The notes: generated from the letters alone by a model not told the origin. 64,000 nucleotides of DNA from an uncultured Desulfobacterales bacterium (GCA_964452555.1 CAYVMI010000024.1:11250-75249), one strand, 5' to 3'. Shown: positions 9,805 to 26,340, counted from the stretch's first letter. Translations and numbers: made by a program.

Positions 9805-9893
9805 GGTTTTAGGTTTTAAGTTTTAGGTTTTAGGACAAAAAACAGGTTACATTTACAGCCACTTAAAACTTAACACCTAAAACTTAAAACGCC
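9805..9893. repeat. Inverted pair of tandem 7-8-nt repeat arrays, (G)GTTTTA(A/G) x4 and its complement x4, around a 26-nt spacer
   Basis: GGTTTTAGGTTTTAAGTTTTAGGTTTTAGG (9805-9834) faces ACTTAAAACTTAACACCTAAAACTTAAAACGCC (9861-9893). Confidence 0.7.
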
Positions 9894-9934
9894 TGCAAAA
9901 ATGAATTTGTTACTTTTTGCAAGGAGGTGAAAAG

Positions 9935-10633
9935 TTGCAATTAAATTTGACATTACAGCGAGATAAATCCAGCGAACCTCTGACATTCAATTTCTCGCGT
10001 ATGATCAATGCCGGCTATGTGGGGCGGGATCAGGAAGTGGTACGCAAATATATCGCTGAACTGGAGGCCAAAGGCATCCCCGGTCCCAAGAGCACACCGG
10101 TATTATTCCCGGTAAACCCGAGGGCACTGGTTATGAACGAGGACATCGAGGTTTACGGGACTCAAACCGCCGGTGAGGTCGAATATGTTTTGCTGATTCA
10201 AGATGCCCGAACCATCTATGTGGGCATGGGCAGCGATCACACCGATCGACTCCTGGAAGAGACCGACATCCCTCGTTCCAAGCAGATCTGCCCCAATGTC
10301 ATGTGTCCCACCGTATGGCTTTTGGCTGACGTGGAGTCACATTGGGATGAACTGACTTTTGACAGTCAGGTGATCAAAGATGGTGAAAGCATTGCCAACC
10401 AGGACGGACGGCTGGCGACCATTTTGAGCCCTGAAGCACTGATGGCTTTTGTACGTTCCAAATTGGGGGATGATCTTTCCGGCACGCTGCTGTTTTCCGG
10501 TACCGTGGGGACCATCAGCGGCCAATATATCTATGGTGAGCGTTTTATTGCCGGGTTGTACGATCCTGTTATGAACCGCAGCCTGAGCGTAAACTACGGA
10601 GTCCGCCCCTTAGACTATTTAGAAGTCGAATAA
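9935..10633 (+). CDS. Uncharacterised protein, DUF2848-like (recognised from memory only)
   Basis: ORF 9917-10633. TTG 9935 sits 5-6 nt after the strong RBS AAGGAGGTG. Motifs GYVGRDQ, GEVEYVL and GMGSDHTDR resemble DUF2848. Confidence 0.5.
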   Translation: MQLNLTLQRDKSSEPLTFNFSRMINAGYVGRDQEVVRKYIAELEAKGIPGPKSTPVLFPVNPRALVMNEDIEVYGTQTAGEVEYVLLIQDARTIYVGMGSDHTDRLLEETDIPRSKQICPNVMCPTVWLLADVESHWDELTFDSQVIKDGESIANQDGRLATILSPEALMAFVRSKLGDDLSGTLLFSGTVGTISGQYIYGERFIAGLYDPVMNRSLSVNYGVRPLDYLEVE

Positions 10634-10677
10634 ACCTCAAAGTTGCAACCTTGAACTAAAAACTAGGAGCAAGTTTT

Positions 10678-11454
10678 ATGCGTGTGGCATCCATCCAAAT
10701 GAGCGTTGTTGAGGACCATAAAGAAAAAACCATCGCCAAGGCACTTGAAAACATCACCCAGGCCGCCGATGCTCATCTCGTTATTTTGCCCGAAATCTGG
10801 AATGTCGGTTTTATGAGCTTTGACCGTTATGAATCTGAGGCCGAAGACTGTGAAGGCCCCACCATGAACGCCCTCAAACAGGCTGCCAGGGAGGCGAACA
10901 TATACCTGCATACCGGCAGCTTTGTGGAAAAGGACGGTAGCAACTACTACAATTCAAGCTATTTGCTCTCGCCTGACGGTGATATACTGGCCAACTACCG
11001 TAAGATACATCTGTTTGGTCACAATTCCAGGGAGACTCAGATCCTGACACCAGGAAAAAAAGTGACCGTAGCTGATACGCCCATTGGCAAGATCGGCATG
11101 GCAACCTGTTATGATCTGCGATTTCCGGAGCTGTTCCGGCGCATGGCCGAGCAAGGTGCCCAGCTTTTCCTGATCTGCTCAGCCTGGCCCTATCCCCGCC
11201 TGGAGCACTGGATCATATTCAACCGCGCCCGGGCTTTGGAAAATCAATGTTTCCTGGTTTCGGCCAATTCAGTGGGTCCCAACCTGGGAACCACCTTTGT
11301 GGGCCACAGCATGATGATTAACCCCTGGGGCGTGATTTTGGCCGGCGGCGGTGATGAGGATGTCATTTTAACAAGCGAGATCGATTTGGCTGAAGTTGAC
11401 AGTACCCGGGAACGCTTCAGTGCTTACAATGATCGCGTAGCCTGGCTTTCCTGA
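10678..11454 (+). CDS. Carbon-nitrogen hydrolase (nitrilase/amidase superfamily)
   Basis: Glu-Lys-Cys triad context: LVILPE, YRKIHLF, MATCYDLRFPE. Confidence 0.85.
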   Translation: MRVASIQMSVVEDHKEKTIAKALENITQAADAHLVILPEIWNVGFMSFDRYESEAEDCEGPTMNALKQAAREANIYLHTGSFVEKDGSNYYNSSYLLSPDGDILANYRKIHLFGHNSRETQILTPGKKVTVADTPIGKIGMATCYDLRFPELFRRMAEQGAQLFLICSAWPYPRLEHWIIFNRARALENQCFLVSANSVGPNLGTTFVGHSMMINPWGVILAGGGDEDVILTSEIDLAEVDSTRERFSAYNDRVAWLS

Positions 11455-11527
11455 ATCCTGTTAGCACCAAGGTCGCAATATTGGGATAAATGCAGCACAA
11501 AAATTGTCAATACAAGGAGAATGACCC

Positions 11528-12733
11528 ATGGCAGATTTGTTCATTGATTTTTGCGGTGTGAAAATCAAAAATCCGTTGGTAGCCGCATCGGCTGAACCCA
11601 CCTTGAACGCCCATAATATGAAAAAATGCATCGATGCAGGTGCAGGAGGGGTTATCGTCAAAACCATGAGTGATTCCCCGGAAATGCGTGAACTGACCAC
11701 CCGCTCCAAGTGGCGCTTTCTAGATCAAAAACATGAAGTGGCCTGCGGCAAAGTGCCCCGCGCCTTTAGCCTTTACGGTCGTTCCGGATTGGCCTTGGAA
11801 CCCCCGGAAGAGTTTATGCCGGAGGTCGAAGAAGCCGTAAAGTATGCTGCCAACCATGATGCGGTGGTGATCGGCTCCATCGGATCAGTAACCACCGAAG
11901 GTTGGGTTACACTGGCCAAACAGATGGAGCAGACCGGGGTTCCATTGCTGGAGTGTAATTTTGGTTGTCCCCATCCCCATATGATGCCGGGTGTAAAAAC
12001 CGGCATGGAAGTGGGCCAGGATTTTGAATATGCCTGCAACGTTACCCGCCAAGTCTGCGAGGCCGTAAATATTCCGGTGATGATCAAGGTCACCCCCCAG
12101 GTGACCAGCCTCATCGAGTTTACCGGTCACCTGATGGATGCCGGAGCCCAAGCGGTTACTCTCACCAACCGCTTCATCGGGTTCGTGCCGGACATCGAAA
12201 CCGGAAAACCCCTGATTTATGGCAAAGCCGGTTGTGGCGGGCCTTGGATCAAGCCTCTGACCCTGCGCTGGATCCACGATATCCGGCAGCATTACCGGGA
12301 CAGGAATGTATTTATCGCCGGAACAAACGGTGCTTATGATTGGCGCGATATTGTGATGTTCATGATGAGCGGGGCTCACATCGTGGAGATGTGCTCGGCG
12401 GTGATGGTTTACGGCTATGAGTGGTTGGGCAAGCAGGTCCAAAAATTGGATAAGTGGATGGATGAGAAAGGGTACAGCTCGGTTGACGAGTTTTTAGGTG
12501 TCGCCACCGATGCCTCCCTGGCCTACTCTGAAATGCCGCCAGAAAAAGCACGGGTGGATGCAGAACCCTGCACCAATTGCGGTCGCTGTCTGAAAGCTTG
12601 CTTCTACCAGGCCATGCAGCCGGGCGATGAAGCTACCTGGGTGGAGACAAACAACTGTATCGGTTGTGGCGGCTGCTATTCTGTTTGTCCCGTAGAAGGT
12701 GCCGTCGAGATCTATGTCGCGCCCCAAGAATAA
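11528..12733 (+). CDS. Dihydroorotate/dihydropyrimidine dehydrogenase-like (PreA-type) flavoenzyme with C-terminal 2x[4Fe-4S] ferredoxin domain
   Basis: N-terminal GVKIKNPLVAASA TIM-barrel DHODH signature. C-terminal CTNCGRCLKAC and CIGCGGCYSVCP clusters. Confidence 0.8.
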   Translation: MADLFIDFCGVKIKNPLVAASAEPTLNAHNMKKCIDAGAGGVIVKTMSDSPEMRELTTRSKWRFLDQKHEVACGKVPRAFSLYGRSGLALEPPEEFMPEVEEAVKYAANHDAVVIGSIGSVTTEGWVTLAKQMEQTGVPLLECNFGCPHPHMMPGVKTGMEVGQDFEYACNVTRQVCEAVNIPVMIKVTPQVTSLIEFTGHLMDAGAQAVTLTNRFIGFVPDIETGKPLIYGKAGCGGPWIKPLTLRWIHDIRQHYRDRNVFIAGTNGAYDWRDIVMFMMSGAHIVEMCSAVMVYGYEWLGKQVQKLDKWMDEKGYSSVDEFLGVATDASLAYSEMPPEKARVDAEPCTNCGRCLKACFYQAMQPGDEATWVETNNCIGCGGCYSVCPVEGAVEIYVAPQE

Positions 12734-12796
12734 TCCTGTAGCGTAGTTTGAGGCTGCGATTTTCAAACGTTGGGGTAAAATCGGAAGGACGATTTT

Positions 12797-14230
12797 ATGA
12801 AACCGATTATTCAATTTTTATCCGACCAAGAAGTTGAGATTCTGCACGTCCAATCGTTGAAAATCTTAAAAGAAATTGGCATGCGCCTGCCCCACGATGA
12901 AGCCATTGAGCTCTTATCTCAACATGGAGTTGAGATCGTGGATAAAAATGTGGTGCGGTTTCCTGAGGAATTGGTCTCCAGCACCATTAAAATGCTGCCC
13001 AAACTGAAAGACGTCACCCTGTACGGGCGGGACCCCAAACATGATGTCACTTTTGACAAACACGAACCAGCCTTGGCCTGCATGACCATGGCGGTAAACG
13101 TTATTGATCCGTATACGCGCCTTAAACGGCCGGCCACCAACGATGACTTGGCGGTTTTGACACGCATGGCTGATGAACTGGAAAATATTCGCGTAAACGG
13201 CGGTCTGGTGACACCGCAGGAAGTCCCCAAAAATTTCAACGACTGGTACACTTGGGCCACCACCATTAAAAATACGAGTAAGCATATCACCGGCGGGATG
13301 CTGGGAGCCAGCTGTGTCCAAGACGCTGCAAAAATGGCGGCCATTGCGCTCGGGGATGAGGAGCACTTCTATGCCAGGCCATTCATTTCCGGCTGGGTTC
13401 TGACCCTGCCGCCCCTTGGAATCGATGCGGAGTCCCTGGAGGCCTTGATGGAAATGAGCCGCATGAACATACCGGCCATCGTCAGCTCCGGCCCCATACT
13501 GGGGACTTCTTCTCCAGTGACCATCGCCGGTACTGTTGCCCAGGCCCACGCTGAAATCCTGGCCTGCATCGTTGTCTCTCAGTTAGTGAACCCGGGTGCG
13601 CCTATTGTCTATACCAGTTTTGCCCGCGGAATCGACATGAAGAGCGGTAATATTTCCATGGCATGCCCGGAATTTGGGATTTTGAAAGTTGCCATGGCTC
13701 AAATGGGAAGATATCTTGACCTGCCGGTACGCATGCCCGCTTTGCTGCGGGATTCCAAAACTATTGATGCTCAGGCCGGATACGAAACCGGCATGATTGG
13801 AACCGTAACCGGTCTAACGGCCGACCTCATGGATGCCATGCAGTTGGATATGGATTTGGTGGTGGATTTCCCTGATCTGGTTTTTTGCAATGAATGCATG
13901 GCCGGTATCAGCCGTATGGCCAGAGAATTGAAAGTAAATACAGAATCGCTGGCCCTGGAGGCCATAGCAAATGTCGGTCCTGGAGGTACTTTCTTAAGTC
14001 ACCCCCATACTTACGATAATTTTCGCAAGGAGCTATGGATACCATCTTTCATGGAACGCAGAAATTGGGACTTGTGGGAAGCGGACGGGGCCCTGGACAT
14101 ATTCAAAGTTGCTGAAAAGAAAACCCTTGAAATGCTGGAGCAAAAACCACTCACCTTGCTGTCAGAAGAAATTGAAAAGCAAATCGATACAGTCGTAGAG
14201 CGGGCCCAAGCCAAACACACTGAGCCTTAA
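12797..14230 (+). CDS. MttB-superfamily methyltransferase, non-pyrrolysine type (complete)
   Basis: 477 aa, uninterrupted, with no in-frame TAG. Full-length similarity to ORFs 2-1177 and 50398-51861. Confidence 0.9.
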   Translation: MKPIIQFLSDQEVEILHVQSLKILKEIGMRLPHDEAIELLSQHGVEIVDKNVVRFPEELVSSTIKMLPKLKDVTLYGRDPKHDVTFDKHEPALACMTMAVNVIDPYTRLKRPATNDDLAVLTRMADELENIRVNGGLVTPQEVPKNFNDWYTWATTIKNTSKHITGGMLGASCVQDAAKMAAIALGDEEHFYARPFISGWVLTLPPLGIDAESLEALMEMSRMNIPAIVSSGPILGTSSPVTIAGTVAQAHAEILACIVVSQLVNPGAPIVYTSFARGIDMKSGNISMACPEFGILKVAMAQMGRYLDLPVRMPALLRDSKTIDAQAGYETGMIGTVTGLTADLMDAMQLDMDLVVDFPDLVFCNECMAGISRMARELKVNTESLALEAIANVGPGGTFLSHPHTYDNFRKELWIPSFMERRNWDLWEADGALDIFKVAEKKTLEMLEQKPLTLLSEEIEKQIDTVVERAQAKHTEP

Positions 14231-15357
14231 TCAATTATCCGCCCAAGACGCTCTACACCTTTCAGCAGGTCTTTTTTGCCGTAGTAAGCAAAACAGAATC
14301 GCAGATAGTTGCGTAATCCATTACGGCATGAAAACTTAATCCCGGGTTGAAACCCCATTTTGTGCTTAGCGGCAGCGGAAAGTAGCAATTCGCTGTCAGT
14401 CCCTTCGGATAAGCACGACCAGATAAAATAACCTCCAGACGGATCCATGAATTTTAAAGCGGGGACATGCTGCCGGAGTGCATTGCATAAGGTGACCATG
14501 CGCTCATGGTACGTTTTTTTGAGGAACCCAAGATAACTTTCCTGCAGCCCCAATTCTAGCATGCTGTTTACAATGCTGGAAATAAAAGGGTTCAGTCCAC
14601 CGCCACTATCGAGATAACCGCATACGATAAAAGGTTCCAGCAAATCGGGTTTGGCTTGTATCCATCCTAACCGCAATCCAGGCGCTAGGATTTTGGAAAA
14701 AGATCCCAAGGAGAGAACCCGTCCGGGAGTATCATAATAACTCATTGGTTTTGGCGGGGTAATCGTATAATTCAGCAATTGATAAACTTCATCGGCAACC
14801 AGGAAAAAGTCATATTCCTCGCTTAATCCAACGAGTTCCTCGCGTCGTCGGTGGGATAGGGTTGCGCCGGAAGGGTTATGAAAAACGGGTATCGTATAAA
14901 TGAAAACCGGTTTGTGTTTTTTCAGTTTTTCCTTCAACGCTTCAATTATAATTCCATTCTCATCAATCGGCGTTCCGATTACATTAAGCTTGTAATCAGC
15001 AAAGATACGCAAAGCCAAAAAATAGGACGGTTCTTCTACAATCACCGTATCTCCCGGGTTAGTTTTAAGCGCACAAATCATATCCAAAGCCTGGGAAATC
15101 CCGGCCGTGATCAAAAGATGATCCGGTTCAACCGTCTTTCCATATTGTGCGCTTAGAAATTGGGCCAGGGATATCCTAAAACTGCTATTGCCCTGTTGCA
15201 TGCCGTATTGCAATATATTGCGGTCTTTTTGCTGAAACCGGTGGTGGGACGCTTTTTCCAACTCCTCAATGGGGAGAATGCCGACTTGCGGCTGGCCGAT
15301 TCCGAAGTCTACCCAATCTTCGGGAACACTAATTTGAGCCACCTGTACTTTATTCAT
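14227..15357 (-). CDS. PLP-dependent aminotransferase, class I/II
   Basis: PLP-lysine motif SFSKILAPGLRLGW and NPSG motif. Start set at ATG 15357 behind RBS AGGAGG (track start 15420 is upstream). Confidence 0.85.
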   Translation of the reverse strand: MNKVQVAQISVPEDWVDFGIGQPQVGILPIEELEKASHHRFQQKDRNILQYGMQQGNSSFRISLAQFLSAQYGKTVEPDHLLITAGISQALDMICALKTNPGDTVIVEEPSYFLALRIFADYKLNVIGTPIDENGIIIEALKEKLKKHKPVFIYTIPVFHNPSGATLSHRRREELVGLSEEYDFFLVADEVYQLLNYTITPPKPMSYYDTPGRVLSLGSFSKILAPGLRLGWIQAKPDLLEPFIVCGYLDSGGGLNPFISSIVNSMLELGLQESYLGFLKKTYHERMVTLCNALRQHVPALKFMDPSGGYFIWSCLSEGTDSELLLSAAAKHKMGFQPGIKFSCRNGLRNYLRFCFAYYGKKDLLKGVERLGRIID

Positions 15358-15933
15358 CACTCCTCCTATATGGAAATCGTATTGGACATCTTTTATAGCG
15401 TTTCTATACCAGCATATCAAGAGGTGGCAATTTTGGACAATTCACGCATGGTCCTCTAAATCAGGTTTTTCAACTACTGAATAGATGATCAAAATATAAG
15501 ATCGCTGAACATTAAAAAAGCACCCAAATCAAATCGTTGGTTTTATGTGGCGCGCTTATACAATTTAAAATACTCCCAATTCAAAAATTCAAAATTGCTG
15601 AATCAAACCAAATCTTTTTTCAAAGCATTCAAGCGTAAGTATCAATATGGTAATAGGAAGTTTAAATGTAGATTACATCAAATTGAGGAAATACTTCTAT
15701 ACGTTAACTTTATGATTATGTCTTTTTGTCAATATTTTCTTCGTGTTATCGCAAGTCACAACATAATTTTTTCGGTCATATGTTTTGATTTCTTTACGTA
15801 GTTGGGTGAATATCAGTCAAAAATATACCGTCATTTTCCTGCAACCGTCGTTTTGCCATTACAATAGGTTTCTTTTAATAACGTCAATATGACATATTTA
15901 TTGTCCGTGGTGAGGGCATTGTAGCCAGCGGTA

Positions 15934-17172
15934 TTAAACAGTATGGATATCAAATTCCATTAAAACCACCTGTGTCAATTTTTTAAGAATTTTTGAAGAT
16001 AGATTGACTGTGATTTCCTTTTTTCTTCCATACCGCCCTTTCGATAAAAGCCGCGCCTGGATAAATCCATACATATCTAATTCGGAAACCAAATCAGAAA
16101 AAGCCCGTTGGGTAAGAGTCTTGAGATCAGCTTTATCGCAAAAGGAACAATATATTGCATAGGCCTCGCCGGTATATAATGGTTTGGCACTTATTGAATT
16201 TCTGGAAATAATTGAATACAAAACAGCCTGAAGTTGCTTCGGGCTTGATTTAATCATCGCGACATATTTATCTTTCTCTATTTCCTCCAAGGCCTTATCC
16301 AAAAGGTCTAACGATATTGCTGTCCCCTCTTTTTCAGCCATGTGAGATGATTTTGATAACAGTTCGACAGCCTTTCGTGCATCTCCATGTGTTCTGCTGG
16401 ATATAGCGGCGATTTTATCAACAACACCCTCTTCTATAAATTTTTCATTCAGGGCCTTTTTTATTCGTAATGAAAGAATTTTCTGGAGATCACAGGCATT
16501 ATAAGGCTCGAACAACAGTTCATTTATCTTTAAAAAAGATTTAATACGCGGATCAACATTATCCTGCCAATTCAGTCTATTTGAGGTGAACACAATCAGC
16601 AGCTTCGCTGATATTTTTTGTGGCAACCGTTTTACAATAAATTTTAAAAAGCTATCCAAATCACGTTTGATATGATCGATTTCGTCTATAAAGAGGATTA
16701 AATAGCCTTTGTAATCAACGATTTTTTCCTCAATCTTGCTCATCAATTCATCCAGAGATATTCCCTTTTTATATCGCTTTGCTGCGTTTAGAAAACAGGC
16801 AAGGTCATTTAATGCGCGAAAACATGGTTTGGGCGTAGATAGATCAAGATGGATATATTTCATGTTGATTTTTCGTTTTTCACACAGCGACTGGAACAAA
16901 TTTAGGAAATAAAGCATGGTTACTGTTTTGCCTGCACCGGTTTTTCCAAGGAGTGAAAGATGGATGGGATGATCATTTCGAAAGATAGGTGCGAAGTGGG
17001 AGCTTAATTCACGGATTTCTCTATCCCTGACATCAATATCGAAAATTTCACGTAATACCTCAAATTGCTCTTCTCGATGCAGTTGCTCATCATCTAAATA
17101 TTTTCTGTTCTTGATAATCGTGTTTTTAAGAAGAGTTTTTATTTGTTTTTCGATTTTTATTTCAACATCCAT
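15934..17172 (-). CDS. Orc1/Cdc6-type AAA+ ATPase with C-terminal winged helix
   Basis: Walker A GKTGAGKT, Walker B LILFIDEIDH, sensor-1 VFTSN, sensor-2 GDARKAVELL. C-terminal LTQRAFSDLVSELDMYGFIQARLLSKGRYGRKKEI matches the Cdc6 winged-helix signature. Confidence 0.85.
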   Translation of the reverse strand: MDVEIKIEKQIKTLLKNTIIKNRKYLDDEQLHREEQFEVLREIFDIDVRDREIRELSSHFAPIFRNDHPIHLSLLGKTGAGKTVTMLYFLNLFQSLCEKRKINMKYIHLDLSTPKPCFRALNDLACFLNAAKRYKKGISLDELMSKIEEKIVDYKGYLILFIDEIDHIKRDLDSFLKFIVKRLPQKISAKLLIVFTSNRLNWQDNVDPRIKSFLKINELLFEPYNACDLQKILSLRIKKALNEKFIEEGVVDKIAAISSRTHGDARKAVELLSKSSHMAEKEGTAISLDLLDKALEEIEKDKYVAMIKSSPKQLQAVLYSIISRNSISAKPLYTGEAYAIYCSFCDKADLKTLTQRAFSDLVSELDMYGFIQARLLSKGRYGRKKEITVNLSSKILKKLTQVVLMEFDIHTV

Positions 17173-17177
17173 TCTCG

Positions 17178-17395
17178 CTCCACCGGAAATTTACCAAGCT
17201 ATGTTGATGTTCTGAATGTACTCATATAAATAATTTTTGGTTTTATCAGTGGGTGTAGTTTTCCGATGGAAAATGTCAGGCGGGTGTGGGGATTACATAT
17301 TTTTTCTTTTTCTTGTTTGTTTCTATATAGAAAATAAATAATATGAATAGCATAAATATAATTATAATAGATTCCATCGGAAATTTACTCTCGCT
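17178..17395. other. Origin-like module: three TTCC-N4-GGAA dyad repeats around a ~75-bp extreme AT tract
   Basis: CTCCACCGGAAATTTACC (17178-17195), GTTTTCCGATGGAAAATGTC (17258-17277, opposite orientation) and ATTCCATCGGAAATTTACTCTCGCT (17371-17395). AT tract at 17296-17370. GGGTGT boxes at 17251 and 17283. Confidence 0.45.
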
Positions 17396-17478
17396 GAAAT
17401 AAACCCCTATTGGGAAAAGATTAACTCAGACCGGAGAACAAAGAAAAACAGTCTATAATTTGTAGAGTTTTAATGAAC

Positions 17479-17841
17479 TCATCTCAAATGCGGATGATAA
17501 GTCAGTTTGCTCTGAATTTTATAAGGCCTGGGATGTGACACGGAATGTATTCGATATGCATCTCTAAACGCAGATCGAGAGTAACCAACAGTCAGTTGAA
17601 TATCATCGCCTTTATTAATAAGGCGATCGACAGAATCAGTTTTTCGATTAAACGGATTGCTTAAAAGTCCGTATAAGTTCCCTATGCTTGGTTTCTGATT
17701 TTCATCCCTGAACTCAACATGATAATGCTTATAGGTACCTTTCTGTTCGACAACAATCCCGATCATACCATTGCCATACCTGTATTTGTCTATGACCTTA
17801 CCGCTTATATACTCACCCCTGATATAATCAATTAATGCCAT
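17479..17841 (-). CDS. Hypothetical protein (ORFan, 120 aa)
   Basis: Clean ORF in the AT-rich island. No recognisable motif and a weak RBS. Confidence 0.45.
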   Translation of the reverse strand: MALIDYIRGEYISGKVIDKYRYGNGMIGIVVEQKGTYKHYHVEFRDENQKPSIGNLYGLLSNPFNRKTDSVDRLINKGDDIQLTVGYSRSAFRDAYRIHSVSHPRPYKIQSKLTYHPHLR

Positions 17842-17902
17842 ATTATTTTGGGGTAAAGGATATGATCTATAAATACTTTTTGATTTTCATAAAAAAATGT
17901 TG

Positions 17903-17941
17903 CCTCGTTTCGTGAGATTTTAGAGAAAACACGAAACGAGG
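17903..17941. promoter_or_regulatory. Perfect 12-bp inverted repeat in a divergent intergenic region, covering the RBS of the downstream gene
   Basis: CCTCGTTTCGTG (17903-17914), 15-nt loop, CACGAAACGAGG (17930-17941). The right arm contains the GAGG used as RBS for ATG 17950. Confidence 0.5.
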
Positions 17942-17949
17942 TGATAGAA

Positions 17950-18327
17950 ATGGTAAAACCTGCGACAACAAAGCAGATAGCGTTAATAAAACAGCTAAAA
18001 CCAGATAGCGCCGACATCAGCTTGAACAGTTTTGAGGCATCGAAACTGATTGGCCGGTTAATTCAAAGTAAGGGACAGAGCGGCAATCTATTAGGAATTG
18101 AAAAACAGATAAATGAACCCCGGCTCGGGATGGCAATGAAAGAATGTTATAAAATTTGGACCAGATGGGGGAACAGAGATTTTCTTTTTGGAGACCGTAG
18201 AATTCGATTTATCAAAGAAGCTATTTTAACATATTATCTTTTTACAGAAATAGAAAATCGACTCAGAAATAATTTTTATAAAGGCGAAAAGTATATAGAA
18301 GAACTTGCCCCAGATTGGATTCCATAA
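17950..18327 (+). CDS. Hypothetical protein (ORFan, ~125 aa)
   Basis: ATG 17950 lies 8 nt after GAGGTG (track start GTG 17941). N-terminus is MVKPATTKQIALIKQL. No confident family assignment. Confidence 0.5.
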   Translation: MVKPATTKQIALIKQLKPDSADISLNSFEASKLIGRLIQSKGQSGNLLGIEKQINEPRLGMAMKECYKIWTRWGNRDFLFGDRRIRFIKEAILTYYLFTEIENRLRNNFYKGEKYIEELAPDWIP

Positions 18328-18633
18328 AGCTCCCTGGCTAAAACCAGGGTTCTTGTGGTCATTTCTCCATTTGGAGTTGATGAAGTATGATTTCTTTTTT
18401 TTCGATATAACAACTGGATTTTAAGCAAACTCTTTCTCAATTTTGGTTTTCTACACACCTAAAGCTTTAAAAGTCACTTCAAGTGCTCGGATATAAACTC
18501 TAAGAGTTTATTATCCTCACCTTGCAGCTAAACATTTAAATCTTCCCCCCAAAGGGGTCGGCTAAAAACATTTAATCCCCCCAAAATATTCCGTCGAAGG
18601 TTCACAAAGTGAAACCTTCGCGGAGGTATTAAA

Positions 18634-19218
18634 ATGAAAACTATAGCAAACATCGGTTGGAAAAATGAAGAACTGATTGTCCAGGAGAACCTACCAGTAT
18701 GTGCTGGCTTGAAAGTGATTCGTAAAAACGATCCCAATTACGGTCTCTCGGATGAGGAGATCCAAGACAGGAATGAATTTATTCGTTGTTACTTATTAAG
18801 GGATTTTGAGCCGCTTTTAAAAATACCAATACAAGTTGCCGAAGATGATTTTTTCATACCAGAGCATGATGTATGTTCTTCTGAATACACTGCGTTTAAC
18901 ACCCATGATTTTCAGAAAAGAATGCGGCCCTTCAATAGATACGCATACGCGATGAAAATAATATTAGAACGTGTAAAAGACCTTGCGATTTTATATTCAG
19001 TAGTAAGTTCCCGGGATGGCAAAGAAGAGATTTTTAGACGATTCGAATCACTGGTTGAATATCATTTCAGGGGTCGGCTTTTGTTCCTTGTTCGAAGATA
19101 TAGATATGCATATAGTGATTACGGGAGAATCAAATTAAAACAAAATATCGGCGAAATTAATCGAAGAATTCTTGAATGTAAAAGGATATGGGAGCAATTT
19201 GCTCCCTGGGACGTTTGA
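18634..19218 (+). CDS. Hypothetical protein (ORFan, 194 aa)
   Basis: RBS GGAGG at 18622-18626. Preceded by a hairpin (18595-18620) and two direct repeats. Confidence 0.55.
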   Translation: MKTIANIGWKNEELIVQENLPVCAGLKVIRKNDPNYGLSDEEIQDRNEFIRCYLLRDFEPLLKIPIQVAEDDFFIPEHDVCSSEYTAFNTHDFQKRMRPFNRYAYAMKIILERVKDLAILYSVVSSRDGKEEIFRRFESLVEYHFRGRLLFLVRRYRYAYSDYGRIKLKQNIGEINRRILECKRIWEQFAPWDV

Positions 19219-19403
19219 GTATGATAATATTGGAACTCCTTTGTCCCGTGATAAGGAAAACCGATCCTATATATAAATTTTTCGTTTTCACGCATTTTTA
19301 TGTTTTCTTTCCACTATACTTATAAAACACGGCGATAGATTTGTTGATATTCCCGCTTACGATTACCTCCATTGTCATTGAATAAACAATGGAGGTGCTC
19401 AAC

Positions 19404-19694
19404 ATGAATGCGTACGAACTATATGAAGTAAATAAAGCGATCAATGATGTCAGTAAAGGCTACAATGAGATCGGTCGAAGCCAGAAAACGTTGGCTCCAA
19501 AAACCAACAAATGGGATTATATATTAAGGAAAATTTGCCTTGGCTGTAATAAAACTTTGGGAATCTATGAGGTTCAAAATAATCTTGCTTTTTGTTTCCA
19601 GTGCCGGAAATATTTATTTCCGGAAACAGTATATCATCAGGATCCAATCAAAAACCGATTCCGTTCATTACGATCCAGAGGACATCCGATGTAA
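19404..19694 (+). CDS. Hypothetical small protein with a CxxC...CxxC zinc-ribbon-like motif
   Basis: ATG 19404 follows RBS GGAGGTG. Contains CLGCNKT...CFQCRK. Confidence 0.45.
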   Translation: MNAYELYEVNKAINDVSKGYNEIGRSQKTLAPKTNKWDYILRKICLGCNKTLGIYEVQNNLAFCFQCRKYLFPETVYHQDPIKNRFRSLRSRGHPM

Positions 19695-19789
19695 CGCGAC
19701 TTATGCCTGGCATTGCAAATATAGGGGTGGTTTTTGCAATATATTTGATCTTCAACTGGGGTCCTATAAACTGTAAATGCGCCAACAGC

Positions 19790-20236
19790 CTAATGCGCAT
19801 TCCCGCCTTGAAAAGCAATTCTAAGTGACAGGTTATCGCAAACAAACTCGTATGGTAGTGGGGAACCTATTGATCCCCGATATGCGTTCGTTGGGATAAC
19901 AAAGGCAAATTCTCCAGGTGGTATACAGCCGATATTAAATTCCCCAGATTGATTAATGCTGGCAGATTTAATTGGCGTTTTTTCGCCGATTTCATCCATG
20001 ACAGCGTCATATAATGTTGTTGACGTGCTGTATAAAAACACACGCGAGTTAGCAGTAATATCGCCTGAAACCGTACCATGGATATTTACACAGTTGCGCG
20101 GATATTCGTCGGCCAGGCGATTTTTTGGGTTAGAAATGGGTATATTGTTCTGACAACCGGTTGCTAATAATTCAACCAGGCAGATGAATACTATTACGAT
20201 TGTCAAACATATTGATTGTAAAAATTTGGTACTCAT
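19790..20236 (-). CDS. Predicted lipoprotein, beta-rich (carboxypeptidase-regulatory-like fold possible)
   Basis: Signal peptide with lipobox LLATGC. The mature part is rich in beta-type segments (IHGTVSGDI). Confidence 0.55.
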   Translation of the reverse strand: MSTKFLQSICLTIVIVFICLVELLATGCQNNIPISNPKNRLADEYPRNCVNIHGTVSGDITANSRVFLYSTSTTLYDAVMDEIGEKTPIKSASINQSGEFNIGCIPPGEFAFVIPTNAYRGSIGSPLPYEFVCDNLSLRIAFQGGNAH

Positions 20237-20330
20237 AGGTACTAATTTTATTGGAAGGGTTTTTATATTTTGCGGTTTTACTTTGCCGTGTGAGCAAGTA
20301 TTATCGTAAAATATTTAAAGGGAAACAATC

Positions 20331-20678
20331 ATGAGCAGGTTTATGCTTGGACCAAATTTCAATCGCCTCTACGGCGATGAAGGATATAAGATAAGATATA
20401 TGCGGGATCTGCAAATACAGATAAGAGAGGGGTATTTGAGATTCTGTAGATTGTTGGGAAAATCTACTAATAAGGTTTTTAATGTAGCCGATGAGCGAGA
20501 ATTGGTAAAACTATTCTACTGGCTACAAAATGATATAAAGATATACAAAAAGATTCGAGGGACAGGAATCGAGGGAGTTATAGGTGGTGATATAACAGAT
20601 ATTGAAAAAAAGTTGATTAAAAATAATCAGAGTTACCGGTTGCGTCGGGGACTATCGTCCCCTAGGCCCCGACTCTAA
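20331..20678 (+). CDS. Hypothetical protein (ORFan, 115 aa)
   Basis: ORF with RBS-like AGGGA. No recognisable motif. Confidence 0.4.
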   Translation: MSRFMLGPNFNRLYGDEGYKIRYMRDLQIQIREGYLRFCRLLGKSTNKVFNVADERELVKLFYWLQNDIKIYKKIRGTGIEGVIGGDITDIEKKLIKNNQSYRLRRGLSSPRPRL

Positions 20679-20688
20679 AGAGTCGGGG
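20667..20688. terminator. Stem-loop between convergent genes
   Basis: CCCCGACTC-taaa-GAGTCGGGG, preceded by a second hairpin GGGGAC-tatc-GTCCCC (20647-20662). No clear U-run on either strand. Confidence 0.35.
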
Positions 20689-20741
20689 CAAATAGGGGCT
20701 GAAGCTATTTGCCAAAGATTGTGGGAAGAGGTTCTATATAT

Positions 20742-22223
20742 TCAGGGCAAAATAGAAATACGAAGATAATAAAGGAAAATAAGAGATAACCATCCCATAT
20801 CTACAGGCACTTGATATAGCCGTCCAGGTGCAAAACGAGCTTTAATATGGCGCATTCCGGGTACGATCACGCGTACAACCGATACCCCGGCCGCAGGTGG
20901 AGTATAATCCAACACGAAAATTGGTCGCCCTTTTTGTTTGCCTATTGAGGTGCATAAATGCAGCTTTTCTTTCAAGTTACCTGGTTGGGCCAAAAATCGG
21001 TCCACAGCTTTTGGCGATCTCATTTTACCGGGTTGCATTTGGGGGTTATTTTTAATGAAATCACTTTGGGCCCACAAAATAAAGTTGCGTGCAGATTGAT
21101 CCAAAGATTCTAATCCACCGACGTCAATTTGTTTTTGTATGATCCGTTTGAGTGCGTGTACCTGCAGCATCTCACGCACTGCAGATTTGAGAGCTGATAA
21201 GTAATCGAAGTTTGCACCAAACCCCATGTCAATATCTGATTCATCACTGTTCATCGAAATTGCAGCAATCACGGGAATACCGAGATCATGGGTCAAGTCC
21301 AAAGCATAAAACCGACGATCCAATATTTCCAGCCAGCGCAGGCAACCATCTAATTCCGTATCCCTAAAATATTCTGGATCTATTGCCGGGCGGATGATCC
21401 GATTGTACCACCAAATCCCCACGGCGTCCCTTTCCACCACTTCCAGAAATCCCGAAACAATGGCTTCCTTACGCGTGGGGCCTGCGGCACAGCCATTGCT
21501 ATCGGCGATCAGATAATTTCGATCGTGGGGACAATGCAGATAGCAAAGTCCGGCGGGAACAAAATACGGTTTTCCTTCTGGATAGGAAGATACCTCAACC
21601 CAATCCAAAAGGTTATCGCTCCGGACGGGGTAAGGAACGCGATGCCGCTCTCCGAATTGGTTGTCCCGGACGTTCCTTTCTTGATATTGACGTTCACTGA
21701 AAAGAAGGAACTGATGAGGGTGAAGGCCTTTAGTACCTAATTCGCTTTTTTTTGCCCTGGTGATTTTAATATCCTCACGCCAGGTGATGGCCATCGTCTC
21801 CACCAGTTCTCCCAGAGCAGTTAAGATCCCTGTTTGGGGGGTAAATTCTGAACCGGCTGTATATATGTCTTGTTTCGCTAAATCATTTTCTTTTCCTCCG
21901 GACTTGATGTCTGGTTTTTTGGGGATTGCGGCGTAACTGAAAATTGGAAAATCATCATCGGGATTGATTGATACCAGCGCCCGAAGGCATGGTTCACAGG
22001 TCCTACAAACTGATCGGAATTGTTTTGCTAATTCATTTGACTGCCATTCTACTACCGTATTAGGATCAAAGTCTTCAGCAACGATTAGATTCCAATCGCT
22101 TAAAGCATAAAGAACATGGTAAACCTCTTCAGATTCAAACGATTCGCAAAGTTTGCGAACGATGTCTTGTACCGTGCGATGACCGTTAATCAATGCAGCA
22201 ACTTTAACAAGCATATGATTCAA
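20742..22223 (-). CDS. YcaO-domain protein (ATP-dependent peptide backbone-modifying enzyme) with an extra ~110-aa N-terminal region
   Basis: SNGCAAGPTRKEAIVSGFLEVVERDAVGIWWYN is the YcaO core. The VVRVIVPGM...RFAPGR tail is also YcaO-like. N-terminal LINGHRTVQDIVRKL...VYHVLYAL resembles the helical part of PqqD-like RRE domains. Confidence 0.85.
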   Translation of the reverse strand: MNHMLVKVAALINGHRTVQDIVRKLCESFESEEVYHVLYALSDWNLIVAEDFDPNTVVEWQSNELAKQFRSVCRTCEPCLRALVSINPDDDFPIFSYAAIPKKPDIKSGGKENDLAKQDIYTAGSEFTPQTGILTALGELVETMAITWREDIKITRAKKSELGTKGLHPHQFLLFSERQYQERNVRDNQFGERHRVPYPVRSDNLLDWVEVSSYPEGKPYFVPAGLCYLHCPHDRNYLIADSNGCAAGPTRKEAIVSGFLEVVERDAVGIWWYNRIIRPAIDPEYFRDTELDGCLRWLEILDRRFYALDLTHDLGIPVIAAISMNSDESDIDMGFGANFDYLSALKSAVREMLQVHALKRIIQKQIDVGGLESLDQSARNFILWAQSDFIKNNPQMQPGKMRSPKAVDRFLAQPGNLKEKLHLCTSIGKQKGRPIFVLDYTPPAAGVSVVRVIVPGMRHIKARFAPGRLYQVPVDMGWLSLIFLYYLRISILP

Positions 22224-22498
22224 CCCTATGACAATAAAATTATAATATTAGGATTTTTTTACATGTAATGTAATAATTGCAAATATAGAACATATATGGT
22301 AGGCATCAGAGTTACGAACGCTACGTACACATCCTATTCTTTTCCGACTCCACGCTGAATTACAATTCACCTAACATTGCTCGCTACTGCATTAAGTCAA
22401 TTCACGCTGCAATCACAAGAGTTAAAGGTCCACCACTACTACGGTAAGTGATGCCATCCACGGGCTTACCAGATCCCACCAAACAAAGGAGGTTACTC

Positions 22499-22795
22499 AT
22501 GCCGAGATTAAACCTGTCCAAAACGGATTGTAAAAAAATGGGAAAGTTGATCGGTGATGCTTGGCGTCATCCTGACAAGCGGAAAAAACTACTCGTAAAC
22601 CCAGAAAAGGAAATGACCAAAGCGGGCATTAAAATACCAAATGTTGACAAGATTCGGATCGTCGCCGTCGAAGATACCAAAACGACAATTCATTTGGTTT
22701 TGCCAGTACGGCCGGATAGCGTCACCTTTACCGATCTGAAATCAAGTTCGTTTCAGTTAGATTTGGGGCAAAAACTTTTTGCTGCCTGCCGCTAA
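22499..22795 (+). CDS. NHLP (nitrile-hydratase-like leader peptide) family RiPP precursor
   Basis: RBS AAGGAGG precedes ATG 22499. The leader reads LIGDAWRHPDKRKKLLVNPEKEMTKAGIKIPNVDKIRIVAVEDTKTTIHLVLPVRP. The C-terminal tail is DSVTFTDLKSSSFQLDLGQKLFAACR. Confidence 0.8.
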   Translation: MPRLNLSKTDCKKMGKLIGDAWRHPDKRKKLLVNPEKEMTKAGIKIPNVDKIRIVAVEDTKTTIHLVLPVRPDSVTFTDLKSSSFQLDLGQKLFAACR

Positions 22796-22807
22796 AACAC
22801 CGATCGA

Positions 22808-24607
22808 TCACATATCCGGCAAACGGGGTAATCCGGCCAGAGTTAGGCCGTTAAAGAAACCTTTAAGATCTTTTTTGGGCTTAATGGGTACAATCTGAAA
22901 AAGCCAACGGATGTAATCAACTTCATCAGCGTCGGAAGGACCGATCCAGATTTTTTTAATCCCTTGGACAAATGTACCGGCAGCATTGCGGGCGTTTTCC
23001 TGATCCCCAACCAGGGCATATGCGGCGACTAAAAATGCATGGGTCTCAGGTGAAATTTTTTCAAGGCTGCCGATGGTTGTGATGCAACTCTCGTATTCTC
23101 CTGCTAGAAATTGAATGGTTGCCAGATAACCAAGATAATATTCCGGATGGGTTGGGTTAAGCCGAATAGCTTCGCGGGCCTGACTCAGTCCCAAGGCATG
23201 GTGCCCCAGATAGGCCATGCCCTGAGCCCAGGAAATGCATATGTCCGGATCGATCGGATTCAAATCGGCCGCCACATCGAAATGCTTAAATCCATTTTCA
23301 TAATCCCTGGATAACATATAGATCCAGGCGATATTTAAATGATTGCGGGAATCCGCCGGATCGAGCTCCAGGGCTTTACGGGCATATTGAAAGGCTATCT
23401 GCCGATCTTCGACATCGTTTACATTTCCGGGTCCTAAAATGGTTTTGGAGCTATATACCGAGGCCAAGCCGGCATAGGGACGTGCAAACTCCGGATAAAG
23501 TTTAATCGCCTTTTTAAAGAGTTTAGCGGCTTTCTCGTCGGCTTGGCGATCCCAGGCCTCCAACAACTTATTGCCCCGTAACCAAAAATCATATGCCTTG
23601 TGGACCTTGGTGGGGACATCCTGCGTCGAAACCAAACGATTTTGTATCAAGTGGGTTTCCAAGGTACATACAATGCGGCTGACCACGAGGCTCATGACCG
23701 ACGGACCCTCCTCGGGTGCTACCGTATAACGATCGGCCCAAATTTGATTTTCGCCTTCACACTCCACCAATTGAACTGTAATACAAATCTCCGCGCCCAT
23801 TGAACGGACACCGCCCATCAAGAGGTACTGGGCCCCGAGCTCATTAAAATATCTTTTGGGACTTGCGGTCATTTCCTTGTAGGAAAACGACGTTGTTTTA
23901 GCAATGAGGTGAATCGTGCGGAACCTGCATATATCGGTAATGATATCTTCGATGAGCCAATCATTGATATATTGATGTTCCTTATTGGCGCCAATATAAT
24001 CAAAGGGCTGAACAGCCAAGATAGGCTTTTGGGTCAGCATCAGGCCGGGCGACAACTTATCATCGACTTTAGGTATTAAATCACACGTTTCCATCAGGAC
24101 GCTGAAGATGCGTATCGGTTGGGTTTTATTTTTAACTTTTTGTTCGCGCTTGAACTTAAACCCGGCCGATACTTTCTCCTCCACTAAATCGCGAACGATA
24201 CTGGATACACAAATGCCTCCGGGAGAAGCAAGTTCCTGAATCCTGGCGGTGACATTGACAGCGTCGCCATATATTTTTTTCCCGTCACGGATGATATCAC
24301 CCAGATTGATCCCCACCCGGAAATTCATGCGCTGATCAGCGTCCAATTTGGCATTTTTCTTGCCGAGCTGGAGTTGGAAAGCAATCGAACACTCAACACA
24401 ATATTGAACAGATGAAAACTCAGCCAAGATCGAATCTCCGGTCATATCTACTACGCGCCCGCCAAATGCCCCTGCAAGCTCTGTGAATATTTGACAGTAT
24501 TCCAGAAGCCGCTTTCGAGTTGCATCCTCATCCGCCGCCATCATCAAGGAAAATCCCACCACATCGGCATACAAGATGGCAATCAATCTGCGATCAGTCG
24601 GTTTCAA
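22808..24607 (-). CDS. Class III adenylate/guanylate cyclase domain protein with central TolB-N-like region and C-terminal TPR repeats
   Basis: ILYADVVGFS, GDSILAEF, FRVGINLGD and GDAVNVTARIQ form the CHD. The C-terminal half is TPR-like (AYDFWLRG, LDPADSRNHLNIAWIY). Confidence 0.85.
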   Translation of the reverse strand: MKPTDRRLIAILYADVVGFSLMMAADEDATRKRLLEYCQIFTELAGAFGGRVVDMTGDSILAEFSSVQYCVECSIAFQLQLGKKNAKLDADQRMNFRVGINLGDIIRDGKKIYGDAVNVTARIQELASPGGICVSSIVRDLVEEKVSAGFKFKREQKVKNKTQPIRIFSVLMETCDLIPKVDDKLSPGLMLTQKPILAVQPFDYIGANKEHQYINDWLIEDIITDICRFRTIHLIAKTTSFSYKEMTASPKRYFNELGAQYLLMGGVRSMGAEICITVQLVECEGENQIWADRYTVAPEEGPSVMSLVVSRIVCTLETHLIQNRLVSTQDVPTKVHKAYDFWLRGNKLLEAWDRQADEKAAKLFKKAIKLYPEFARPYAGLASVYSSKTILGPGNVNDVEDRQIAFQYARKALELDPADSRNHLNIAWIYMLSRDYENGFKHFDVAADLNPIDPDICISWAQGMAYLGHHALGLSQAREAIRLNPTHPEYYLGYLATIQFLAGEYESCITTIGSLEKISPETHAFLVAAYALVGDQENARNAAGTFVQGIKKIWIGPSDADEVDYIRWLFQIVPIKPKKDLKGFFNGLTLAGLPRLPDM

Positions 24608-24741
24608 CTTAACTCCTTAGAATCCTAGCAGAAGTTTATATGTAACCTTATTTACGTCAGCCTTTAACACGTCGATCGTGACGTAAAGGTTTCATTGCCT
24701 GTTATCTTAACCTCGTTTTTAAGCACGTATCTCAGATTCTA

Positions 24742-26340
24742 TTACGGCAAACTGAATGCCCTCTCGACAGCTTTAGAGGCGTTTACCCGTCCATATCCAA
24801 AGTAGAGCGAGTGCCCATTGATGAATCTGTCCTGAATGGAATCCATATCGGCTGTTTCTTCGATAATCGCTTTCACCTGAAGTCCGCTCAAATCGGGTTT
24901 AACCGATCGCACCAAGCCGGCCACACCGGCTACAATCGGGCAGGCACCAGACGTGCCGCCAAAACCTGTATAGATCTTTCCGGACTCGTAGCCGGGTCCA
25001 TGCTGCTCGTTATCGGTTGTATAGAGTTCATTCTCAGGCAACCACTCACCCGTTAGCGGATCAAAATTATCACTCGGGGCGCAGATATTAATTTCTCGGC
25101 CCCAATTACTATAAAGCGCTTTCTGGTTGGCACTTGTAATGGCAGCCACCGCAATGGTATGCCGATGCGCGGCATATCCATTTAAAATACTGCTTTCCAC
25201 TACGCGTGTATTAGGGTCCTTCGGGTGCCGTTTATACTCAAAATAGGTGTTATCATCATCACGGATGGGTGCATTGTGATTACCGGCGGCGAAACAAATG
25301 ATGGTACCATTGTGACGCGGACCACCATCAACCGCCAGTTTGTCGATAATATCGGCAATCGGTCGCGGTATAGGGTCATAACATGGCACGGAGGTCCAGC
25401 TGCAAGAAATAACATCGGCCTTTTGACCCACAACTTCGAACATATCTCGAACGCTTAATGTTTCCAATGCGATCCGATTTAGCCCCGTCATGCGAACAGG
25501 CATGAAAGCACAGCCTGGTGCAACCCCGACGATACGGCCGGCGTTCTCCTCAGCAATGGCCAACCCTGCGCATGCGGTACCATGCTTGCCACTTGTGACC
25601 CCTGGATAATCGGACCAGGGTTTCTCATCGCCATCCACCCAGTCTGTTGGATGCACGACCTTATTATCCCCACTAAATGCCGGATGAGATAGATCGCAGC
25701 CGTCATCCATAACAGCGATAACGACTTCCCGATTGCCTTTGGTAATTGTCCAGGCTTGATGGGCAGAAATCTGATCAAGATGCCAGAGGTTGCTCCAGGC
25801 GATCGGGTCAGATGGGGCCGGCAAATAATAGCGCTCCATAAAATTGGGTTCCGCGTAAACCACTTCCGGTTGTCTGATCAGGTCATGGGCAACCTTAAGG
25901 GGATTCTTGCCTGCCTTGTCAGTGACCCGAACGATGAAGGTGTTATCGATACCCGCGCATTTTTTATATAATTCCAGCCCATGGAAATGAAATAAGGAAT
26001 TAACTTCACCAGCCCGAGGTAAAACACGTACGATCAGCAGATCGGTCAGGTAATAGCGCGTCCCGGTCCTCTGTGGGGAACGATAGGCATGATGGCAGAC
26101 GATCTTATTTTTTTTTGATCTCAATTTTTTCATGGCGGCGTTGCGATTCTTTTTCTTCACCTCTATTCTTAAGAGCCGCCGTCCAATCTTGCGGACCTTT
26201 TTAGGTTTTATCAGAGAGTTGATTCTTTTCTCATCGTTATCATTTTCCAGTACAGCCGTAAAATATGACGGCTCCCTCTCTACTTCAAATTGTTCGCCGC
26301 CACGTAACATGACGCGGCCATCATGAATTGACGCATTCAT
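24742..26340 (-). CDS. S8 (subtilisin-family) serine peptidase, no signal peptide seen, Lys-rich N-terminal region
   Basis: Catalytic Asp (VIAVMDDG), His (HGTACAGLA) and Ser (GGTSGACPIVAG). The N-terminus reads KKKNRNAAMKKLRSKKNK. Confidence 0.9.
   Translation of the reverse strand: MNASIHDGRVMLRGGEQFEVEREPSYFTAVLENDNDEKRINSLIKPKKVRKIGRRLLRIEVKKKNRNAAMKKLRSKKNKIVCHHAYRSPQRTGTRYYLTDLLIVRVLPRAGEVNSLFHFHGLELYKKCAGIDNTFIVRVTDKAGKNPLKVAHDLIRQPEVVYAEPNFMERYYLPAPSDPIAWSNLWHLDQISAHQAWTITKGNREVVIAVMDDGCDLSHPAFSGDNKVVHPTDWVDGDEKPWSDYPGVTSGKHGTACAGLAIAEENAGRIVGVAPGCAFMPVRMTGLNRIALETLSVRDMFEVVGQKADVISCSWTSVPCYDPIPRPIADIIDKLAVDGGPRHNGTIICFAAGNHNAPIRDDDNTYFEYKRHPKDPNTRVVESSILNGYAAHRHTIAVAAITSANQKALYSNWGREINICAPSDNFDPLTGEWLPENELYTTDNEQHGPGYESGKIYTGFGGTSGACPIVAGVAGLVRSVKPDLSGLQVKAIIEETADMDSIQDRFINGHSLYFGYGRVNASKAVERAFSLP

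Follow-up and report, generated by a model that had tools for sequence, protein, structure and literature searches.

A probable stranded fragment of a mobile element family with an archaeal-type Orc1/Cdc6 initiator and origin in an uncultured Desulfobacterales bacterium

Introduction

Replication in bacteria is generally described as starting with DnaA or, on plasmids, with a Rep protein, and Orc1/Cdc6 initiators together with origin recognition boxes (ORBs) are regarded as the archaeal and eukaryotic arrangement, which loads the MCM helicase. We analyzed a stretch of 64,000 nucleotides from an uncultured Desulfobacterales bacterium (GCA_964452555.1, CAYVMI010000024.1:11250-75249; hereafter the window), in which an AT-rich island of 5.4 kb (15358-20741) on contig C24 (87.8 kb) holds an Orc1/Cdc6-type gene (orc1), ORB-like boxes upstream of it, and six small open reading frames (ORFs) designated F6, F8, F19, F2, F18 and F17. 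The comparisons presented below make it probable that the island is a stranded internal fragment, extending from F6 to orc1, of an integrated, plasmid-like mobile element.

The closest known systems are the archaeal origins that adjoin an orc1/cdc6 gene: Pyrococcus oriC, Sulfolobus oriC1 with Orc1-1 (2QBY), and that of Aeropyrum ORC1 (2V1U). The window protein shares their domain order (AAA+, lid, winged helix), with Orc1-1 and ORC1 as its best structural relatives, and its gene likewise directly adjoins inverted ORB boxes that flank an AT-rich tract. The boxes closely resemble in sequence those of Pyrococcus (PMC1904270); P. furiosus ORB oligonucleotides bind Cdc6/Orc1 in vitro, and conserved TTCC and GAA motifs are stressed in that study (PMC1904270). 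The window host differs in being a bacterium with DnaA in which no MCM was found, and the module appears to lie on a mobile element, not at a chromosome origin.

Archaeal plasmids that use Orc1, such as those of Methanosarcina barkeri and the haloarchaeal megaplasmids, share an extrachromosomal or mobile replicon driven by Orc1/Cdc6 and gave the best matches in PLSDB. However, the PLSDB matches to the window Orc1 were archaeal plasmid proteins only, and the identity is about 30% (below 31%). F2, F6, F8, F17, F18 and F19 have no meaningful match in Pfam, PHROGs, PADLOC or NCBIfam.

Actinomycete integrative and conjugative elements (AICEs) such as pSAM2 and SLP1 are integrated and plasmid-like, carry their own initiator and a tyrosine integrase, and use a single large ATPase of the FtsK/HerA superfamily instead of a type IV secretion system (T4SS). 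As these elements are generally known, the family described here resembles them in being integrated and plasmid-like, with its own initiator, an integrase and one large ATPase; it differs in the type of initiator and in the host phyla, and the window copy lacks both the HerA-like ATPase and an integrase. Decayed remnants of prophages and integrative and conjugative elements offer a further parallel in their foreign composition, strain-specific presence and loss of integration and transfer genes. The island differs from such remnants in retaining a replication module, of a kind for which full-text literature searches returned no description in bacteria.

Results

Orc1/Cdc6 initiator

The initiator scored 249 bits against TIGR02928, for which the curated cut-off is 181 (248 bits in the genome search, which found orc1 in a single copy). 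The genome also has a bacterial DnaA. Its recognizable domains are AAA_22, Cdc6_lid (E 4e-14) and a Cdc6_C winged helix (E 7.8e-23), and the closest solved structure is S. solfataricus Orc1-1 (2QBY_A), aligned over the full length at E 8.5e-53. All of the approximately 170 columns that are invariant across 20 family members are kept in the window copy, including the Walker A residues G76, K77, T78, G79, G81, K82 and T83 and the Walker B residues D163 and E164.

More than 600 homologues were found in a large protein collection, with identities of 70-78% for the best 120 listed, and those carrying a source name came from Thermodesulfobacteriota and Syntrophales metagenome-assembled genomes (MAGs). 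By sequence comparison, the window Orc1 falls in a clade of its own with these more than 600 sequences, of which the source-named members, like the named genomes, are bacterial. Judged in the same way, the protein has the features expected of an Orc1/Cdc6 initiator, except for the MCM partner: in the host and in four element-bearing genomes, PF00493 gave only cross-hits of 20-31 bits, and it also matched in bacterial controls.

Origin region upstream of orc1

The 300 bp upstream of orc1 are non-coding, and their DNA is 67-76% identical to the same region of other elements. Three ORB-like boxes and an AT-rich tract lie here (Table 1), and their spacing from orc1 is shared between loci. The core TTCCnnTGGA stands at -16, the position of ORB-c, in 12 of 18 loci; the ORB-b core recurs at about -98 in nearly all Thermodesulfobacteriota loci, and the ORB-a core at about -210 to -220 in most loci. 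Across the 18 loci, the 330 bp upstream of orc1 contain the core at a 139-fold higher density than the remaining DNA, and the pattern has only one further occurrence in the window. ORB-a is closely similar to P. furiosus ORB3, GGAGAGAGTTTTATTTCCACTGGAAG (sequence as in PMC1904270).

Related loci have a comparable AT-rich tract between their boxes, and the 80-bp tract of the window is a candidate DNA-unwinding element. ORB-c is likely to be an autoregulatory operator of orc1.

A further conserved box, AAAnnTTTAAATA, was observed between ORB-b and ORB-c in L022-L041 at about -45 to -60 from orc1 (for example GAAAGCTTTAAATA in L031), and in most loci it stands about 45-50 nt upstream of the gene. 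Its counterpart in the window, at about 17215-17235, is the more degenerate TTATTTATAT. The motif looks like an archaeal BRE/TATA promoter (B recognition element and TATA box), and it could equally be a bacterial -10 region.

Fuller copies of the element

We compared the DNA around nine Orc1 homologues and 16 loci from named genomes, and 439 ORFs from 14 of these loci were clustered. Co-occurrence of the small ORFs with Orc1/Cdc6 homologues elsewhere, an idea raised in a sequence-only reading of this DNA that preceded the present analysis, was found for all six: each has a homologue beside orc1 in the loci compared. The order F6-F8-F19-F2-(F18)-F17-origin-orc1 is the same in the window and in L024, with the same genes on the same strands, and the small-gene block is partial in L023, L025 and L027.

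Beyond this block the fuller copies continue. A HerA-like ATPase of about 650 aa (F1), with matches to DUF87 and to PADLOC HerA/mad8, follows the small genes in 10 of 14 loci. Where F1 occurs in Thermodesulfobacteriota (seven loci), it is joined by F3, a Cas4-like PD-(D/E)XK nuclease of about 250 aa, by F4 and, in three loci, by F13 (48 aa). In L023, L024, L025 and L027, homologues of F6 (27-37% identity) adjoin F8 and are followed by F15 or F4 and then by F13, the Cas4-like gene and the HerA-like gene. F7 (zinc-ribbon-like), F9 and F5 occur on the other side of orc1 or farther off. Hallmarks of mobile elements are also present: genes for ArdC-N, ParA, HU, RadC, SprT, Replic_Relax, a DNA methylase, Fic/Doc and a SMODS protein occur in individual loci, and L024 has a tyrosine integrase.

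Among the 25 most-matched Pfam and PHROG families of 86 representative proteins from ten loci, there was no capsid, portal, terminase, tail or T4SS family; the sole virus-like near-match in the fuller loci was a weak one of the HerA-like ATPase to a terminase family. Close relatives were found neither in phage records or IMG/VR nor on the bacterial plasmids of PLSDB.

The family is widespread in Thermodesulfobacteriota and has relatives in Verrucomicrobiota, Kiritimatiellia and Lentisphaerota (Kiritimatiellae and Lentisphaerae in record titles). Among the named genomes that bear the element are Desulfobacteraceae, Syntrophales, Desulfovermiculus, the Olavius Delta 1 symbiont, Pontiellaceae, Kiritimatiellae and Lentisphaerae. 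Genomes of Pontiellaceae, Kiritimatiellae, Lentisphaerae and other Verrucomicrobiota contain relatives at 52-56% identity, and the HerA-like gene is again present there.

Two metagenome contigs, L025 and L026 (JGI 3300036987 and 3300037046), share 12,378 bp including orc1 at 100% identity, and their flanks are unrelated from L025:12565, 1.3 kb past orc1, which suggests a recent move or rearrangement. Integrases next to tRNA-Pro in Desulfovermiculus and tRNA-Glu in Syntrophales lie 32-60 kb from orc1, and no matching att repeats were found around either copy. A short copy, L055, consists of orc1 and two small ORFs beside host kinases, and a reduced form also occurs in L056.

Two of the loci contain additional blocks. 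In L025, 8 kb with ferredoxin, nitroreductase, hydrolase and CoA-ligase genes separate orc1 from F4-F13-F3, which could be a cargo insertion or a recent rearrangement. On the Syntrophales contig of L022, genes for WD40, Ser/Thr kinase, Prok-JAB, E2-CBASS and ThiF-like proteins (14365-21242) directly adjoin the element, and this ubiquitin-like/CBASS-type defence cluster is possibly cargo.

Element genes retained in the host assembly

The host assembly is a MAG of 5.9 Mb in 112 contigs, with 47.8% GC and 93.7% completeness. A tblastn search with all ORFs of five fuller loci recovered only F0, F2, F6, F8, F17, F18 and F19, all within 15936-20638, so that the island corresponds to an internal slice of the element, cut just after F6 and just after orc1. 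F1, F3, F4, F5, F7, F9 and F13 have no homologue in the whole assembly by tblastn, and the ArdC, ParA and integrase genes present in some elements are likewise absent from it. We call the island a fragment because the HerA-like ATPase, the Cas4-like nuclease, F4 and F13 are among the genes with no homologue in the assembly.

None of the 14 other genomes searched from the host's family, of which nine belong to its genus, yielded Orc1, and the island genes are therefore not core genes conserved among the host's relatives, which agrees with the accessory character proposed from the sequence alone. Among 400 genomes sampled from the phylum, two carry Orc1, at 41-43% identity and in several copies each. 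These distant copies number four in one genome (G101), two of them with in-frame stops, and two in the other (G340), and they may represent a second, multi-copy Orc1 element lineage.

Six small genes

The coordinates of the six genes are collected in Table 1 with those of orc1, its origin region and the island edges.

Table 1. Features of the AT-rich island, in window coordinates.
Feature	Position	Strand	Remark
Left junction	15358..15933	.	Non-coding AT-rich spacer, aminotransferase start to orc1 stop; island left edge inside
orc1, Orc1/Cdc6-type AAA+ initiator, 412 aa, intact	15934..17172	-	TIGR02928
ORB-c, GGTAAATTTCCGGTGGAG	17178..17195	-	Ends 6 nt before orc1 ATG
ORB-b, TTCCATCGGAAAACTACACCCACTG, same box inverted	17247..17272	+	Inverted pair with ORB-a
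AT-rich tract, 80 bp	17292..17371	.	Between ORB-b and ORB-a; read from sequence
ORB-a, distal box, CAGCGAGAGTAAATTTCCGATGGAA	17372..17396	-	Closely similar to P. furiosus ORB3
F17, 120 aa	17479..17841	-	45% identical to 127-aa origin-adjacent gene, same position, L024
F18, 128 aa (125 from ATG 17950)	17941..18327	+	43% identical to 126-aa gene in L027
F2, 194 aa	18634..19218	+	Most widespread small gene of the element family
F19, 101 aa (97), two CxxC pairs	19389..19694	+	47% identical to 97-aa gene, same position, L024
F8, lipoprotein-like envelope protein, annotated ORF 148 aa (19790-20236)	19640..20236	-	In-frame TAG 19790-19792
F6, 115 aa	20331..20678	+	Last element gene before YcaO cassette
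Right edge	20679-20741	.	Between F6 end and YcaO cassette

F2 has 234 homologues at 50-62% identity, all unnamed; it stands beside orc1 in seven Thermodesulfobacteriota element loci and in two copies in L023. Its AlphaFold2 model (pLDDT 70.8) ends in a C-terminal three-helix bundle. The structure search gave no informative PDB match (best Foldseek E 0.09), and a profile search against PDB sequences gave none. For F18, a word-based search of a large database matched only F18 itself.

F19, a small protein with paired CxxC motifs, looks zinc-ribbon-like from its sequence. A nested palindrome, GTTTCCAGTGCCGGAAATATTTATTTCCGGAAAC, lies inside the gene at 19594-19627 and has CCGGAAAT arms that resemble the ORB core. 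The same DNA encodes a conserved CFQCRKYLFPET motif, and the palindrome with its arms may be coincidental, since the L024 homologue lacks the CCGGAAAT arms.

F8 is represented by 116 cluster representatives. Its relatives are about 198 aa long and have Tyr or His where the window copy has TAG, and it is the only island gene that ends in this codon. The 50 codons beyond it (19640-19789) are open and in frame and read AVGAFTV...YCKNHPYIC...GCPLD, like the cysteine-containing C-terminus of the relatives. Genes for PylS (312 bits) and PylD (219 bits), each scoring above its cut-off, are present in the host genome (G000:C46:43086-46414). TAG ends 26% of long ORFs in the host genome, and it is therefore mostly a stop there. 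The F8 codon is either a fresh nonsense mutation or a partly read-through codon, and conditional read-through as pyrrolysine is conceivable. In the AlphaFold2 model of the L024 homologue (pLDDT 85.9), an N-terminal helix with Gly-Cys precedes a beta-sandwich, for which the PDB matches were weak (CnaB2 and PA1324-like, E at least 0.01).

Composition of the island and its edges

GC per 500-bp window is 0.32-0.40 at about 15250-20750, compared with 0.44-0.55 in the left flank and 0.42-0.49 in the right flank. The 5-kb windows of the island (GC 0.37) belong to the lowest 0.5% of 5,422 genome windows, and only 0.25% of 2,021 windows exceed the island in tetranucleotide distance from the genome mean. 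GC3 (GC at third codon positions) is 0.33-0.39 in the seven island genes, 0.47-0.61 in left-flank genes and 0.41-0.51 in right-flank genes. The related elements have a GC of 0.39-0.58, broadly matching their surrounding loci, and the window copy is the lowest among them at 0.36; this suggests that it came in fairly recently from a donor of lower GC, with a composition that would not yet have been ameliorated.

Much of what the sequence-only reading had described is borne out by these measurements. The sharp drop in composition that it reported is present in GC, GC3 and tetranucleotide usage, and the ORFs lie where it placed them (Orc1/Cdc6 plus 120, 128 (125), 194, 101 (97), 148 and 115 aa). 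It had also seen no integrase, partition gene, capsid gene, tRNA or flanking direct repeat, and we agree: no integrase or recombinase, partition or capsid gene lies within 15358-20741, no tRNA was found across the window, and no convincing flanking direct repeat (att) was detected, only short, imperfect two-copy repeats. Other details need revision. Strict alternation of orientation does not hold, the actual order along the island being - - + + + - +. A ribosome-binding site for every gene was an overstatement, as Shine-Dalgarno-like motifs precede four to five of the seven starts and are missing from F17 and F8; structured leaders were found only for F18, F2 and F19, which fold better than shuffled sequences (z -2.4 to -4.7). 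The absence of a recognizable family for the six ORFs stands, but they are not ORFans, since their homologues occur in the same order beside orc1 elsewhere.

On the left, synteny and DNA homology with the sister-genus genome G012 run from window 9389 to about 15441 and end within 15367-15441. Beyond this break, G012 has genes that in the host genome sit on contig C10. The left spacer contains no homologue of F7, F9 or F14, which come after orc1 in other elements. A weak DNA match of the spacer at 15.6 kb to G007 and G008 was dismissed, the matching DNA in G007 being an unrelated AT-rich stretch between genes.

In the relatives searched (30 genomes for 15770-24600 and 15 for 24000-26600), nothing matched window 15770-26600 at the DNA level. 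To the right, the island adjoins a cassette of YcaO, NHLP-like precursor, cyclase-TPR and S8 protease genes (20742-26340), with an intermediate GC3 of 0.41-0.51 and no DNA match in the same relatives (30 genomes for 20742-24600, 15 beyond). With neither the island nor the cassette matched, about 15.4-26.6 kb is a strain-specific region, apparently made up of two or more modules that differ in composition. In the related loci compared (14 clustered loci and the gene tables of L055-L058), orc1 was not seen beside a YcaO gene.

Both junctions are present in a second assembly. A 28-kb contig in the Logan assembly of SRR24302418 contains window 9866-27172, including the two junctions, at 100% identity. 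This assembly was built separately, its reads not being established as independent of those of the MAG, and the reproduction of both junctions in it makes them unlike an assembly artefact.

Discussion

The sequence-only reading had noted the absence of a Rep gene, which is wrong in substance, because Orc1/Cdc6 is the initiator of the element. Among the natures it offered for an undescribed accessory module, that of a mobile-element remnant related to a plasmid-like replicon agrees with the evidence; defence does not, as PADLOC offers nothing for it and the origin architecture is conserved. By the searches described above, the island lacks the marks of a complete integrative element, a virus or a known defence system. 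We consider it probable that it is the F6-to-orc1 portion of a larger element left behind in the chromosome, and the family to which it belongs, which carries an archaeal-type initiator and origin, is apparently undescribed.

On this interpretation, the element would have arrived by horizontal transfer from a lower-GC donor, and after integration both arms would have been lost, leaving a copy that no longer excises or moves. In intact elements, Orc1 would bind the ORB boxes, melt the AT tract, and recruit a helicase other than MCM, which might be either the HerA-like ATPase of the element or the host DnaB. The box that overlaps the ribosome-binding site and translation start of orc1 would provide autorepression. 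A role of the HerA-like ATPase in transfer is a guess. In the window copy, where Orc1 and the origin look intact, the protein may continue to bind its boxes and to repress orc1, but productive firing from the fragment is unlikely because of the missing element genes.

Several observations weigh against the interpretation as a stranded fragment. No part of the island shows clear damage: Orc1, all three boxes and five of the small genes, with normal lengths, are intact, and the sole lesion, the TAG in F8, could be partly read through, given PylS and PylD in the host. A near-identical full-length relative is not known, 78% being the highest Orc1 identity, so that the deletions are deduced from elements with somewhat variable gene order. 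Another short copy exists (L055), and a naturally small form is thus possible. No att repeats that would mark the ends of a full-length element were found around the Desulfovermiculus or Syntrophales copies. Given the completeness and contig number of the MAG, the missing genes could also be unassembled, although not beside the locus.

The intact Orc1 and origin, the five or six intact small genes and the reduced copies L055/L056 would also fit a complete, naturally small element, such as a satellite or mini-replicon with an initiator, an origin and a few accessory genes, which would be transferred through full-length elements or would still replicate itself. We regard this as rather unlikely: the locus is single-copy and lacks an integrase, a tRNA target and repeats at its ends, its genes are precisely those of an inner segment of the larger elements, broken off after F6 and immediately past orc1, and L055 has other ends and another gene set. 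Domestication by the host, with Orc1 acting as a transcription regulator or driving a secondary chromosomal origin, could account for the retention of every family-invariant residue and for the ORB box over the orc1 translation start, and there is archaeal precedent for Orc1 paralogues as regulators (PMC6061795, PMC9738581), including the non-initiator Orc1-2 of Sulfolobales, described as a transcription regulator (PMC6061795). This explanation is improbable, however, given that Orc1 was not found in the 14 genomes of the host's family, that the composition is not ameliorated, and that the 64-kb window contains just one further instance of the ORB-core pattern.

Small unknown genes grouped in AT-rich islands are characteristic of defence loci, and an anti-phage island around an AAA+/STAND-like ATPase would also account for the weak PADLOC match of Orc1 to Avs1b (E 0.0014, 14 bits). 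That match and one to mad8 (10 bits, E 0.089), again by Orc1, were the only ones that PADLOC-DB 2.0 gave on the island. The same protein exceeds the cut-off of the curated initiator model, can be aligned from end to end with Orc1-1 and is preceded by a conserved origin of ORBs and AT tract, and none of the six small ORFs has a PADLOC match, which leaves defence a very improbable explanation. Least credible of all is an assembly or binning artefact, in which archaeal DNA would have been misjoined into a bacterial contig. An initiator and origin of archaeal type in a MAG would fit such a misjoin, but the junctions recur at 100% identity in the separately built assembly, the left flank is syntenic with the sister genus, and every island gene has its closest relatives on contigs titled as bacterial taxa, several of these contigs being longer than 100 kb.

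Beside the preferred interpretation of the island as a stranded fragment stands a claim about its replication module, which we put forward only as a doubtful possibility: that Orc1 and its ORBs might constitute a working bacterial replicon, in which the initiator would open the ORB-flanked origin and hand it to a non-MCM helicase. That helicase might be the HerA-like ATPase of the element, or host DnaB reached through a conserved small protein such as F2. With its initiator and origin intact, the window copy might then have kept the ability to bind, or even to fire.

The island in the window is probably only a relic, and its main value lies in the family that it reveals. Six genes that had been taken for ORFans can now be assigned to a mobile-element family, and the Pontiellaceae isolate B12227, which carries a related element, provides a cultured handle on it. 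TIGR02928 is not safe as an archaeal marker in binning or contamination screens. The family comprises a well-conserved Orc1 clade with an ORB-type origin at fixed offsets, in a host and four other element-bearing genomes in which MCM was not detected, and this raises the question of which partner an archaeal-type initiator recruits inside a bacterial cell. If the module were a working replicon, it would represent a third route of bacterial initiation beside DnaA and plasmid Rep, in a family spanning at least two phyla among the genomes searched.

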